DNA of 58,965 bases from Candidatus Ryanbacteria bacterium RIFCSPHIGHO2_02_FULL_45_17b (GCA_001819815.1 MHNO01000010.1:67847-126811), one strand, 5' to 3'; counted from the first letter of the stretch, positions 52,935 through 58,965 are shown. The notes: generated by a model from the letters alone, not told the origin. Translations and numbers: made by a program.

Positions 52935-55900
52935 ATGGTGAAACCATTACCAAGAAACACATATATGGCTATAAAAGCATATTCATTACATCATCTTTTA
53001 GTTGCGATTAACGCTTGTGCATTCAGGAAATGGGGAAGGTATATTGCAGTCTTCTTTTTTGTTGCAGTTACTGTTTTAGGGATAGTGACTTCTGCCTATG
53101 CCGCTAGTAGCCAACAAGGAGGCGATTTTTATCAAGAAGATGAAAAAATATCTAATTCTCGCCGCATCTCCGCAGGAACGGGTGAATTTTACGGCGATTT
53201 TTCATATTCCTATCCTATAGCAATTCCAGCCGGGAGAAATGGTTTACAACCAACGATAAGTCTTTCCTATTCAAGCAACTCAGCAGATCAACAAAGTTCG
53301 TTCGGTTACGGCTGGTCTGTTTCCGTGCCCTACATTGAACGTATTAATCGTGAGGGAGTAGAAACTCTATACAGCAGGACTTATTTTTACTCATCCCTCG
53401 ATGGTGAATTGGCATCTACCACAAGCACGCAATACGGCGCAAAGGTAGAAAATGGGAGTTTTCGCAAATATGAAATGTCTACTTCTACATCTGGTTGGAC
53501 GGTAACTGATAAAAATGGCACCGTATATACATTTGGCGCCGCAACATCCACACGGATGGATGACCCCGACAACGGATATAAAGTATACCGATGGTATCTT
53601 GATGAGGTGCGGGATACAAACGATAACTATATTTCTTATTCATATTTCAAAGATCGCGGCCAAGTATACATTGCAACCTCCACATACACCGGGTACAACA
53701 ACACAGCGGGTCCGTTTACGGTAGAGTTTTACCATGAACCAAGAAATGACATCGCTTCATCGTCCGAATTTGGATTTTGGTCAGTTTCTGCCTATCGCAT
53801 CAATGAAATACAAGTCGCCATCGATGGCTCCTGGGTGCGTACATACGCACTCGGCTATACTACGGGAGATAATGATGTCCGTTCCATGCTTGATACCATT
53901 ACTGAGTCGGGCAAGGATGAAGCTGGTGTTGTGGTAACGCTCCCTGCGGTAAATTTCAACTATCAAAGTAACGACAATAGTTGGACGCGTAATACTACAT
54001 GGGAAGCTTCCGGTGTTCCGCAGTTTAATTTAACAACAGATCATGGTGTTACAATCGCGGATGTTAACGGAGATGGTCTTGCCGACATGGTGGAGAAACG
54101 CGGCACTAATCCAGCTAAGTTATATATCAATAAGGGTGACAATACAGGCTGGTATAATTGGTCAGACAGCCCGCAAAGCACCTCTAGCATCCCGTGCATA
54201 TCTTCCATATACGCGGCGGGAGATGTTCGAGACTGCGGCACCCGATTCATTGATGTAAATGGCGATGGTTTTGCTGATATTTTATATGGCCAAGGAAGTT
54301 CTACCAAAGCATACATAAACAACGGTGACTATTCCGGCTGGACGCTAAATGCGACGTGGGCTCCGCCTAAAAATTTTGTAAACTCGTCTCAAGCTGATTC
54401 CGGTCTCCGCATCGGCGAAGTAAATGGCGACGGGTTACCCGATCTGGTGTACTCTGCCACATCTTCTGCTGTGTATATCAATACGGGGCACGGGTGGTCT
54501 CAAGACACAGGGTGGACCGTACCAATTGCGTTTATAGGATCGACAACCAAAGATTTGGCCGTACGTTTGCTGGATATCAACGGAGACGGATTATCCGATT
54601 TGATCCGTGCATCTGATGATGATGCCCAAGCAAATAGCGTTTTTCTCAACACGGGCAGGAAATCGTGGGAAGAAGATACAAAATGGGTAGTACCGGAAGC
54701 ATTTGAAGAATCCACTGGTGAAGCATTGGGTGTACGGCTTGTTGATGTGAATGGCGATAACTTGGTAGATTTTGTTCGGTCTGACGATCAAGGTTCTGGT
54801 GGAAGCACGGTGCAGAAAGTGTATCTCAATCGCGGTGATGGCACAGGTTGGACGCAAGATACCCAGTGGAGTATCCCCATTGGATTTGTTGATAGTAATG
54901 GTGTCAATCAAGGCACTCGTATTGAAGATGTAAATGGCGATGGGATTGCAGACCTCCTCCGTTCCAATGATTTCATACGAATTCATTTGACCAACGGTAA
55001 AAAAGCGGATCTTCTCACAAAAATAACCCACAGCGAAGGAGGGCATACAGTCATAAGTTACAAACCTGCCCAGCAATATACCAGTGGCGGTACATTACTT
55101 AACCCCCACGTGCCCTTTGTTGTCTACACGGTAGAGAACATTGAAGAACATGATGGTCTTTCTGCAACAACTTCCAATATGACATATAATTATCGTGGTG
55201 GTGATTTCTATTATGGTTTTGCGCGAGATCGCAAGTTTGCCGGTTTTGGCACTACCACCGTAACGGATGCGGCAGGCAATGTAACAAAAACATATTTCCA
55301 GCAGGGCAATGACACCGATTCTGCCAAAGGTGAGTATTCTGATGATATTTCAAAGATTGGCAAGCCGTATCGTATAGAACAATATGATGGTCCCAGTAAT
55401 CTCTATGCAAAAACCATCAACAAATGGGAAAACTACGATTTAGGCTATAAGCGTGATTTTGTAAAACTTACCCGCACAACAAGTTTTTCTTACGATGGCG
55501 ATTTGGATCATGCGGAAAAAGCGGAAGAATACACCTATAGCAATTCAACGGGAAATCTCACTGAGAAAGTTGAGTACGGAAAAGTAAGTGGTAATGATGA
55601 TGGCACATTTACAGATACGAGCACGGACAAATTTACCTCGAGCATATCCTACGCGGCAAGTTCCACGCCGTATATTATGGCGCGCCCGTCAGTAGAAACA
55701 GTAACAGACCAAAGTGCGGTAAAAGTAAAAGAAACAAAATTCTACTATGACGACCTCGCAAACGGCAGTGTGGACAAAGGTAACGAAACAAAACGAGAAC
55801 GTTGGAAAACCAGTTCAACGTATGCCTCTACCACACGCGCATATAACACGTATGGTCTTGTAACAGAAGAAACGGATGGTCTTGGTCATGAGACAACTTT

Positions 55901-58900: not shown

Positions 58901-58965
58901 GATCAAAGATGCGGGAGACGCAGAGCCGACCCGTATGGCTCTGCGATTAGATGCCGATTACGATG
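52935..58965 (+). CDS. Giant secreted SpvB / FG-GAP / RHS-repeat (Tc-toxin TcB-like) protein, 3' partial (at least 2010 codons)
   Basis: The frame is open from TGA 52929 to the window end, and the ORF track omits it because it has no stop. Signal anchor IAVFFFVAVTVLGIVTSAYA. SpvB motif SSFGYGWSVSVPYIERI. Six x-VNGDG-x-x-D repeats at 54060-54960. YD repeats (YDGLGRRL, FDGFGRIV, DAYGRLEQV) at 55200-57150. Acidic P/E/T linker at 57340-57640. The start could instead be ATG 52965. Confidence 0.85.
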   Translation, partial: MVKPLPRNTYMAIKAYSLHHLLVAINACAFRKWGRYIAVFFFVAVTVLGIVTSAYAASSQQGGDFYQEDEKISNSRRISAGTGEFYGDFSYSYPIAIPAGRNGLQPTISLSYSSNSADQQSSFGYGWSVSVPYIERINREGVETLYSRTYFYSSLDGELASTTSTQYGAKVENGSFRKYEMSTSTSGWTVTDKNGTVYTFGAATSTRMDDPDNGYKVYRWYLDEVRDTNDNYISYSYFKDRGQVYIATSTYTGYNNTAGPFTVEFYHEPRNDIASSSEFGFWSVSAYRINEIQVAIDGSWVRTYALGYTTGDNDVRSMLDTITESGKDEAGVVVTLPAVNFNYQSNDNSWTRNTTWEASGVPQFNLTTDHGVTIADVNGDGLADMVEKRGTNPAKLYINKGDNTGWYNWSDSPQSTSSIPCISSIYAAGDVRDCGTRFIDVNGDGFADILYGQGSSTKAYINNGDYSGWTLNATWAPPKNFVNSSQADSGLRIGEVNGDGLPDLVYSATSSAVYINTGHGWSQDTGWTVPIAFIGSTTKDLAVRLLDINGDGLSDLIRASDDDAQANSVFLNTGRKSWEEDTKWVVPEAFEESTGEALGVRLVDVNGDNLVDFVRSDDQGSGGSTVQKVYLNRGDGTGWTQDTQWSIPIGFVDSNGVNQGTRIEDVNGDGIADLLRSNDFIRIHLTNGKKADLLTKITHSEGGHTVISYKPAQQYTSGGTLLNPHVPFVVYTVENIEEHDGLSATTSNMTYNYRGGDFYYGFARDRKFAGFGTTTVTDAAGNVTKTYFQQGNDTDSAKGEYSDDISKIGKPYRIEQYDGPSNLYAKTINKWENYDLGYKRDFVKLTRTTSFSYDGDLDHAEKAEEYTYSNSTGNLTEKVEYGKVSGNDDGTFTDTSTDKFTSSISYAASSTPYIMARPSVETVTDQSAVKVKETKFYYDDLANGSVDKGNETKRERWKTSSTYASTTRAYNTYGLVTEETDGLGHETTFTYDARNLYAATSTNPISQVTGYAYDYTNGKPKRITNPNGFIFETTFDGLDRTTEEKQPDLATPTTRVSKTTYIYTDAQPPSVQETHNLDGSTSFLVYKYFDGFGRIVQERKEAEDTNTYSVHDYTYNNRGLLNIESLPYFGSGPSKATATTSSALFITYAYDALQRPSTISNAVGVTSYAYDDWKTTVTDAESNTKRLTKDAYGRLEQVAEYTEGSATTTSYEYNYLGNLTKITDPAANVRNFTYDGLGRRLTAQDLHDTGDATYGTWTYTYDDVGNLSTQTDPDSKEVDFTYDDTNRVLTENYTGSAGTEIEYGYDGCPNGAGFLCSATSTDAVTNYRYNALGGIATSTVTINSIDYATGFNYDRQGNQAYILYPDSSKVAYTYNTAGLLEVVSRSEPADAGYTTVISDFDYAPTEQVTLMAYHNGAQTTRSYDRSELYRLRQLKTEFSGAGGAGLNEDIGYLVEVPEYDLRPQVRDAAPSSATTAPELFQEPIEEEPVIAPNETPTEEEDIIDIDPEDTTAPEEAPAEEPATDEEAEEPTSPEETVEDDIVDEEETVTEETPAEDVSVEHEKAPEIAMVPPITDGLPEIREKRTWNSKTFNTGSTSISEIHPKVIHYKDASGAWQDQNLHLRDTGTQFEMDKAPFSVTFPKTSTGDATFTANSHWDYKNKTDLNEPPLTKTTRAIDAVDVVGIQKEESLLNIGWISYVEYAGAFPDADLLYTTRDGVLPARQQLLRFDEPLTEDTTYCFEMSYDKDVKIKQNGNEWDKAHKLRTKDSLQVHVEDTRRGISTYPFFMWDSNEETEKKQSIDVEIEKHGNTYALCKTVPASFFTKDTVYPVYADDTDTFSPDANAESGSVDGFTDAADSTFSGAVNQAGDRAFDDMTTFQVHVGTFPPGWILSRGIVVFETDDVITSGAAVTYGDLQLTARLVGDPEGGHECVLDESSALVDGTDSGLVAGDYDAIQTTEIATRLPISGMSVGERNVDEQFVLNSAGLSWIKDAGDAEPTRMALRLDADYD

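Follow-up and report, generated by a model that had tools for sequence, protein, structure and literature searches.

What kind of device does a bacterium belonging to the candidate phyla radiation, or CPR, encode in a giant gene that resembles the cocoon-forming BC part of a Tc toxin, and what are the large foreign domains that interrupt its product? These questions are raised by the end of a 58,965-nucleotide stretch of DNA from Candidatus Ryanbacteria bacterium RIFCSPHIGHO2_02_FULL_45_17b (here called the window, at its full length), in which one frame of the plus strand is free of stop codons from 52932 to 58964 (2011 codons by in-frame translation), as an earlier note on this DNA had pointed out. 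In public contigs the frame runs on for 848 codons past the window end, giving a full gene of 2858 codons, which is real, complete and probably functional. We consider it likely that its product, the Ryanbacteria giant, is a single-chain, TcA-independent, surface-displayed Rhs polymorphic toxin of the BC type, retargeted by phage-like binding modules.

Scaffold and inserted modules

The 2858 residues are ordered as leader, SpvB/TcaC domain, FG-GAP propeller, TcdB mid-N domain, YD shell, acidic linker, insert A, immunoglobulin-like (Ig) domain, second part of the YD shell, insert B, Rhs core and a tip of 212 residues (Table 1). Domains were searched for in Pfam (with the 2010-residue window product, listing matches at E≤0.01), NCBIfam and PHROGs, with curated cut-offs for family calls; all four Pfam families of the scaffold (SpvB, FG-GAP_3, TcdB_toxin_midN and RHS_repeat) exceed theirs. 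The succession of signal anchor, SpvB domain, six-motif FG-GAP propeller and YD/RHS shell, read earlier from the translation, is thus borne out by Pfam and by a motif scan, in which V/INGD motifs occur at residues 377, 441, 496, 548, 605 and 666. Among all 19-residue windows of the protein, strong hydrophobicity (Kyte-Doolittle 2.3) is confined to the leader, which may be cleaved; a hydrophobic N-terminus is retained in the family consensus. The whole SpvB/TcaC domain spans approximately residues 57-370, and the family profile aligns with the SpvB structure 6p0x. In the first part of the shell, RHS_repeat is matched in five stretches (E 4e-14), to which NCBIfam adds YD_repeat_2x; this part has 45-71% identity with its counterpart in the sister giants and matches the Rhs shells 8qja and 7q97 in phmmer searches.

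A profile built from the Ryanbacteria giant and five full-length relatives, searched against the PDB, reaches TcdB2-TccC3 at E 1e-42 in three co-linear segments (the N-domain at 4-203, propeller and mid-N at 341-789, shell part 2 and core at about 1794-2135), and, over propeller and mid-N, also TcdB1 (E 3.5e-25, at 334-795) and YenB (E 2.7e-21, at 341-804); the homology to TcB and TcC proposed in the earlier note therefore holds. In YenC2, residues 225-690 are matched over about 310 residues of the giant, and weaker matches extend to Rhs proteins of type VI secretion systems (T6SS), to bacterial teneurin-like proteins (9pt5, 9ifo) and to teneurins. By sequence, the front end of the giant is of the TcB type and the back end of the TcC type, in one chain. 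The linker was also considered as the exact junction of TcB and TcC and rejected, as the resumed shell aligns at approximately residue 225 of YenC2; the insertion site would accordingly lie inside the TcC-equivalent part, or the shell may simply be shorter.

The acidic spacer, placed earlier at 57340-57640, corresponds to a low-complexity linker with a net charge of about -37, whose sequence is not conserved across the family alignment. The 445 residues from the linker to the window end have no match in Pfam, NCBIfam or PHROGs, in agreement with the earlier description of at least 440 residues without a recognizable motif; what has to be corrected is their position, since they are not a C-terminal extension but an insertion within the shell. 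Linker, insert A and Ig domain form a module of about 700 residues, behind which the YD repeats resume at residue 2166. In this second part of the shell, a match to bPH_2 (E 4e-4) falls below the cut-off and was treated as noise.

Insert A belongs to a large family. With window residues 1566-2010 as the query, HMMER finds 428 relatives at E≤1e-3, 65 of them at E≤1e-30, among 1.84 billion representative proteins; most stand alone, with 480-560 residues and no Pfam domain, and a minority are giants of the same scaffold family. N-terminal signal-like leaders occur in three of the four stand-alone relatives retrieved. The AlphaFold2 model, computed with 58 aligned relatives, is all-beta and of high confidence (pLDDT 90.1, pTM 0.88). 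Among predicted viral structures, the best Foldseek match is a Siphoviridae protein of 1379 residues (E 1e-11; TM-score relative to the query, TMq, 0.60), and several phage proteins match a subdomain of about 170 residues at about 2.8 Å root-mean-square deviation. Three sampled stand-alone relatives sit in phage-like, tightly packed, co-directional arrays of unannotated genes, with the neighbours listed in Table 1. A tblastn search with one stand-alone relative found no match in 50,697 phage genomes, two scans of genome collections for the family likewise gave none, and a word-index search with insert A and the Ig region returned one protein, P0001, and not the giant itself. Insert A represents a domain family common to phage virion and tail modules, and, judged by fold and context, this sharing makes a role in binding cell surfaces its most economical reading.

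How freely this module moves can be seen in the large relatives from the exhaustive search, against which ten segments of the giant were mapped by local BLASTP, in the giant's own coordinates. Over the scaffold segments, identity with several full-length relatives (2650-3280 residues) is 39-71%, and insert A, usually together with the Ig domain, occupies four sites in this scaffold across the family (Table 1). The site at about 2354/2524 is filled in the Ryanbacteria giant by insert B (residues 2363-2521), which has no family match in Pfam or NCBIfam and, among the large relatives compared by BLASTP, is present only in P0086, at 43% identity. Its occurrence at four places in a conserved scaffold makes it very unlikely that insert A is part of the cage wall; it would rather behave as a decoration on permissive loops, and the long acidic linker fits the role of a flexible tether. 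The family shows that a Tc-like cage tolerates large foreign domains at several positions of its wall, and these insertion sites, as natural permissive loops, could be of use in directing engineered Tc or Rhs delivery cages to new targets.

Insert A could alternatively be an enzyme, for example a polysaccharide lyase or a glycosidase accessory that opens a wall or capsule, with the rest of the protein acting as proposed above; we regard this as unlikely. Among 59 family members, several positions with Asp, Lys or Arg do not vary or hardly vary, depolymerases are frequent among phage tail proteins, and the Foldseek matches in the PDB are beta-supersandwiches, found in YidC P1, heparinase III, PL33 lyases and the N-domains of GH31 enzymes. 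These matches are weak, however (TMq ≤0.29), and the matched parts of heparinase III, PL33 and GH31 are the non-catalytic beta-sandwich domains; moreover, no catalytic family was found in Pfam, NCBIfam or PHROGs, and the profile of 59 sequences matches no PDB sequence.

Core, tip and immunity-like gene

No Rhs core precedes the spacer, as had been remarked from the window sequence, but one is present further on: its motif lies approximately 3.5 kb past the spacer and 1.9 kb past the window end, where TIGR03696 (Rhs_assc_core) matches residues 2559-2645 with 64.9 bits, against a cut-off of 32.5. In the alignment with TccC3 (RYYQPWIGRWLSSDPAG...NNPVTLLDPDGL, followed by M after the cleavage position; RYQNPTDGRWISQDPAS...NNPIIKRDPNGE, followed by F, in the giant), the Arg and both Asp residues of the autoprotease are retained (R2597, D2610 and D2642). 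Beyond this core end, the extended contig holds the two further elements that the earlier note had thought might be found there, a tip as the putative toxin and a neighbouring immunity-like gene.

The tip is rich in Gly (15%) and Ala (14%) and contains 11 motifs of the form small-xxx-small-xxx-small. Its family comprises eight database proteins, in every one of which it begins right after DPxG(R/E)F and which share an invariant GAH..Y..EA motif. The tip may be membrane-active, as suggested by its composition, a low-confidence helical prediction, the membrane location of its partner and the precedents of Tse5 and SGS1 (see below); Tse5 is reported to be an Rhs protein with a pore-forming tip.

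Homologues of the partner, a 161-residue open reading frame (ORF), directly follow tip homologues in each of two unrelated contigs, L006 and L007 (overall identity 62% and 66%; for L006, 72% in the soluble part). Such a conserved pairing of tip and small membrane protein is the signature of a toxin-immunity module, with the 161-residue protein as the putative protector. In L006, a contig of 153 kb, the same pair is flanked by several transposases, and its neighbours, an outer-membrane beta-barrel protein, an extracytoplasmic function sigma factor and CopD, suggest a Gram-negative host. The presence of the pair in this setting points to a module that has spread horizontally across phyla.

While the scaffold is shared, the tip varies between similar proteins. 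P0086 (2873 residues) is built like the giant, insert B included, and has Ntox21 at its end (31.6 bits; cut-off 25). P0001, a 752-residue fragment from another Ryanbacteria metagenome-assembled genome (MAG), is 74-76% identical to the giant from a point within insert A up to and including the core (DPTGEY), is without insert B and continues into an unrelated tip with a weak, sub-threshold match resembling the Tse3 muramidase. Together with the Ryanbacteria giant, these proteins represent three tip types; the tip-only fragments P0001, P0004 and P0075 resemble the 'orphan' tips of Rhs systems. Each of the two Ryanbacteria genomes has an IS200-type Y1 transposase gene beside its Rhs tip region; the two copies are 64% identical, and the transposase may drive the truncation or exchange of tips.

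The variability of the tip also bears on a reading of the giant as a non-toxic adhesin or receptor, comparable to metazoan teneurins or SGS1, that would hold the episymbiont to its host and in which shell and tip would be structural. Such a role would suit a large surface protein that displays beta and Ig modules and belongs to an organism believed to live fixed to other cells, and TEN_YD-shell matches (PF25023) are recorded for the product in public records, next to the profile matches to teneurins and bacterial teneurin-like proteins. It is nonetheless quite unlikely: the catalytic Arg and both core Asp residues are intact, where teneurins have lost the last core Asp; tips differ between close relatives, one of them carrying the toxin domain Ntox21; unrelated contigs share the pairing of tip and immunity genes; and FN-plug and NHL, which define teneurins, were not detected by Pfam in residues 1-2010.

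Proposed mode of action and genomic surroundings

For the single-chain toxin that we favour, the following mechanism can be proposed. The protein would be exported by Sec from a cell that lacks an outer membrane, and would stay on the surface of this cell or be shed. Its folded shell would enclose the C-terminal tip as a closed cocoon, and the core protease would cut after E2646, leaving the tip trapped inside. Held out from surface loops by flexible linkers, the inserted beta and Ig modules would bind a structure on the surface of the target cell, probably a glycan, a targeting role equivalent to that of the receptor-binding domains of TcA and similar to the one proposed for the inserted carbohydrate-binding and lectin domains of SGS1. 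On contact, the Gly/Ala-rich helical tip would be released and act on the cytoplasmic membrane of the target, while the membrane-embedded 161-residue immunity protein would protect the producer and its kin. The conserved immunity-like gene points to bacterial targets, and rival CPR cells or the host cell are likelier victims than eukaryotes; a host-attack device, as envisaged in the earlier note, is possible, but this gene and the lack of a TcA gene nearby speak against it.

Several points weigh against this reading. At the cleavage site, P1 is Glu (Arg in relatives) in place of Leu, and the catalytic Asp residues are 32 residues apart where 18-20 or so is usual; autoproteolysis of the core is therefore only predicted. 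The TcC-like part is short (about 310 residues without insert B), and the cocoon may differ from those of Tc toxins; closure of the shell and an outward orientation of the inserts are presumed. For the putative binding role of insert A the evidence is solely fold and genomic context, and the PDB matches to this domain are as weak as given above. The AlphaFold2 model of the tip, all-helical, is of low confidence (pLDDT 51) and unreliable, no segment is hydrophobic enough to score as a classical transmembrane (TM) helix, and the GAH..Y..EA motif could be an enzyme site, by which an enzymatic activity of the tip would be possible. The absence of a TcA-sized or TcA-like gene applies to the inspected 52.9 kb upstream and 1.3 kb downstream of the giant gene. 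Finally, the tip would have to leave the cocoon and cross the envelope of the target without TcA, T6SS or a type VII secretion system.

Alternatively, the giant could be a conventional Tc BC component, on whose FG-GAP propeller a TcA pentamer encoded elsewhere in the genome would dock to inject the tip into a eukaryotic or bacterial cell. The co-linearity of N-domain, propeller and mid-N with TcdB2, TcdB1 and YenB, the alignment of the core with TccC3 and YenC2, and a tip of the size usual for TcC variable regions favour this alternative. It is very unlikely all the same, as B and C are fused in one chain, the largest other ORF in the 52.9 kb upstream has 769 residues, nothing resembling TcA follows in the 1.3 kb downstream, the conserved immunity-like gene behind the tip is not needed by anti-eukaryotic Tc loci, and the giant carries an N-terminal hydrophobic leader of the Sec type, which to our knowledge is not known from classical TcB. 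The organism also argues against it, since TcC proteins were found almost only in Proteobacteria and Firmicutes in a published survey, where CPR do not appear.

How CPR bacteria (Patescibacteria) attach to, exploit and compete with other cells is little understood. They are not known to have the usual contact-dependent injection systems. It is possible, though we advance this only tentatively, that CPR episymbionts carry a self-contained, TcA-free Tc/Rhs cocoon, whose recognition modules were captured from phage receptor-binding proteins into loops of the cage and can be moved, duplicated or swapped among at least four such loops, while the tip is exchanged separately. If true, this would be a weapon modular in two ways, its targeting and its payload both being exchangeable, by which a minimal bacterium could kill or manipulate its host or rivals by contact, without a dedicated secretion needle. 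The family as such shows that a single Sec-exported chain can make up a Tc-like cage with no TcA gene in the locus.

The gene itself is well attested. It is absent from the ORF list supplied with the window, as had been noted, because that list drops ORFs reaching the window edge, but it is called in both public records (2848 residues at NCBI, 2858 at the Joint Genome Institute, JGI; an alternative ATG lies at 52965). The NCBI contig MHNK01000019.1 (137.9 kb, GCA_001819735.1) corresponds to the window with its bases 67929-126893; it and the JGI contig also contain the upstream gene of 247 codons. The other ORFs listed between 53.4 and 58.8 kb are indeed off-frame or on the opposite strand: all those of at least 80 residues are on the minus strand, except one at 57928-58179, on the plus strand in another frame ((57928-52935) mod 3 = 1). 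At 58960, six bases from its end, the window has A where MHNK01000019.1 and JGI 3300002502 have T, which changes residue 2009 from Phe to Tyr; this is the sole mismatch in an overlap of 16.9 kb with the public assemblies. This one-base difference, the IS200-type transposases flanking Rhs tips in both Ryanbacteria genomes and truncated copies such as P0001 might be cited for a chimeric assembly, or a gene in decay, as the source of the long frame. Such an origin is extremely improbable, given that the 8577 nt of the gene are identical and stop-free in NCBI and JGI assemblies from different samples and that every scaffold segment has its counterpart in full-length relatives.

The sequence of the gene just downstream of the giant gene is identical to OGZ43264.1 and OGZ46821.1, deposited under Candidatus Ryanbacteria MAGs; the organism is therefore a CPR/Parcubacteria bacterium, Candidatus Ryanbacteria, in line with the episymbiotic small-genome bacterium supposed in the earlier note, whose placing of the gene behind a glycan locus, here a glycan-biosynthesis locus, also holds. 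The seven genes directly upstream, at the end of this locus, encode, in order, an acetaldehyde dehydrogenase-like protein, an HMGL/DmpG aldolase-like protein, a thiamine pyrophosphate enzyme, an epimerase, an ATP-grasp_2/Citrate_bind protein, a coenzyme A (CoA) ligase and a 247-residue C-terminal fragment of citrate synthase. The last three look like a split ATP-citrate lyase or a citryl-CoA-type system, unexpected in a CPR genome and in a context of sugar modification. Inside the glycan locus, a 769-residue protein with CotH and NosD/beta-helix domains adjoins VTC and DUF4956 genes (polyphosphate-related) and is found as an exact copy on at least 16 contigs from several samples. Three tRNA genes are the sole Rfam matches in the window, and a promoter and terminator scan found fewer sites than in shuffled controls and nothing informative.

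Table 1. Features of the giant gene, its relatives and its surroundings. Plain coordinates are those of the window; residues are those of the giant protein; L- and P-labels denote contigs and proteins retrieved in the analysis.
Feature	Location	Strand	Residues	Remarks
Giant gene, part in window	52935..58965	+	1-2010	first 2010 of 2858 codons (70%)
Giant gene, full	L001:10842-19418 (window-equivalent 52935-61511)	+	1-2858	recovered from MHNK01000019.1 and the JGI contig
Signal peptide or signal anchor	52935..53102	+	1-56	hydrophobic core 33-58, ending AYA/AS
SpvB/TcaC N-domain core	53193..53657	+	87-241	PF03534, E 4e-15, 56 bits (cut-off 22)
FG-GAP beta-propeller	54045..55004	+	371-690	FG-GAP_3 (PF13517), five stretches, E 1e-20
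TcdB_toxin_midN	54915..55292	+	661-786	PF12256, E 3.8e-19, 69 bits (cut-off 24.8)
YD/RHS shell part 1	55005..57344	+	691-1470	RHS_repeat and YD_repeat_2x matches
Acidic Pro/Glu/Thr linker	57345..57629	+	1471-1565	95 residues; Glu 31%, Pro 14%, Thr 13%
Insert A	57630..58965 in window (1566-2010)	+	1566-~2045	480 residues, all-beta; AlphaFold2, homologue search
Ig domain	beyond window		2052-2160	Ig_Rha78A_N, E 3.4e-15
YD shell part 2	beyond window		2166-2357	Pfam/BLASTP
Insert B	L001:17928-18404, beyond window		2363-2521	159 residues, flanked by GGGGG runs
Rhs core	beyond window		2527-2646	TIGR03696 and TccC3 alignment
C-terminal tip	beyond window		2647-2858	212 residues, 21.7 kDa, directly after core
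Immunity-like ORF	starts 22 nt after the stop codon of the giant gene			161 residues; two TM segments and a basic soluble part
IS200-type Y1 transposase	L001:20235-20744, just past window end			downstream of immunity-like gene
IS200-type Y1 transposase	L003:9242-9883			directly upstream of truncated tip-only copy
Tip and immunity pair	L006:10001-11479
Insert A site inside SpvB domain			~159/166	P0110, P0111
Insert A site inside shell part 1			~1200/1209	P0054, P0059, P0027
Insert A site between shell parts			~1436-1470/2166	Ryanbacteria giant, P0086, P0015, P0033, P0136, P0049, P0006 (first copy)
Insert A site between shell part 2 and core			~2354/2524	P0006 (second copy, insert A and Ig)
Stand-alone insert A relative	L016:3235-4683			neighbour matches phrog_8198
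Stand-alone insert A relative	L011:2348-3883			neighbour matches phrog_3030
Stand-alone insert A relative	L018:7818-8816 (IMG/VR contig)			downstream of major head protein and tail-spike-like protein
Seven upstream genes	45498-52837	+		end of glycan locus
CotH and NosD/beta-helix protein	29104-31413	-		769 residues
tRNA genes (three in all)	882-1037	-
	4617-4687	+

Comparison with known systems

The basic domain call is not new, because one relative is listed at NCBI as 'SpvB/TcaC N-terminal domain-containing protein'. What appears to be new are the phage-related modules inserted into loops of a BC-type cage at sites that vary, the presence in CPR of such a system without TcA, and the uncharacterised pair of tip and immunity protein; full-text literature searches for Rhs or SpvB in connection with CPR, Patescibacteria or Parcubacteria found nothing relevant. 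Three uncharacterised families can be named from this locus: the widespread phage-related beta domain with its 428 representatives, the small Gly/Ala-rich putative toxin and its partner with two TM segments.

With the Tc BC subunits (TcdB2-TccC3 and TcdB1-TccC2 of Photorhabdus, YenB-YenC2 of Yersinia entomophaga) the giant shares the SpvB/TcaC domain, the FG-GAP propeller, mid-N, the YD shell, the Arg/Asp/Asp autoprotease of the Rhs core and a variable tip of about 200 residues, of a size compatible with the cage. In the published TcC survey, 99.8% of the hypervariable regions are below 40 kDa and 97.9% are 201-400 residues long, and the tip of the giant falls within both ranges. In contrast to these subunits, it is one polypeptide instead of two, has a Sec-type leader and a far shorter TcC part, carries two foreign modules in its shell, is followed by an immunity-like gene, occurs in a CPR host and has no TcA gene nearby, where the partner translocator is normally encoded. 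Further, TcdB_toxin_midC (PF12255) is not among the Pfam matches to residues 1-2010, where it may be too diverged for detection.

The bacterial teneurin-like proteins (BiTLP) described by Raoelijaona et al. (2026; PMC13018210) resemble what is proposed for the giant: they are surface toxins with a YD shell, Sec signals, adhesion domains, polymorphic tips, immunity genes and autoproteolysis of the core. The teneurin-like proteins (TLPs) are defined in the same work by the combination of FN-plug, NHL and YD shell, carry their adhesion domains at the N-terminus and occur in six phyla, CPR not being among them. The giant differs from TLPs in the SpvB and FG-GAP domains at its front and in its accessory domains inside loops of the shell, and, with neither FN-plug nor NHL matched by Pfam in residues 1-2010, it does not have the TLP superfold.

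WapA of B. subtilis and the T6SS effectors RhsA, Tse5 and Tse15 resemble the giant in the YD shell, the Rhs core, the interchangeable tip, the immunity gene directly downstream and the tip-only 'orphan' copies. Like WapA, which Sec exports from a cell lacking an outer membrane, the giant would be exported by this route. Unlike these proteins, the giant has a TcB-type front end, where they have one that binds PAAR/VgrG or the cell wall; display modules interrupt its shell; and its tip family is uncharacterised.

In SGS1 of the mosquito (PDB 8FJP), a BC-like cocoon with inserted carbohydrate-binding module, lectin carbohydrate-recognition and wedge domains encloses TM-like helices. Like the giant, it combines a single-chain BC-like cocoon with putative receptor domains inserted into the Rhs/YD shell and with an intact protease motif in the core, and the core region of the giant matches 8fjp directly (E 3.6e-07); its cargo of membrane-type helices is likewise C-terminal and about 230 residues long. 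SGS1 differs in being eukaryotic, in its two propellers and in having no immunity gene, and its inserts have other folds and fixed sites, whereas the phage-related insert of about 480 residues and the Ig domain of the giant change position between paralogues. For a BC cage made of one chain and decorated with further domains, SGS1 offers the nearest structural precedent.

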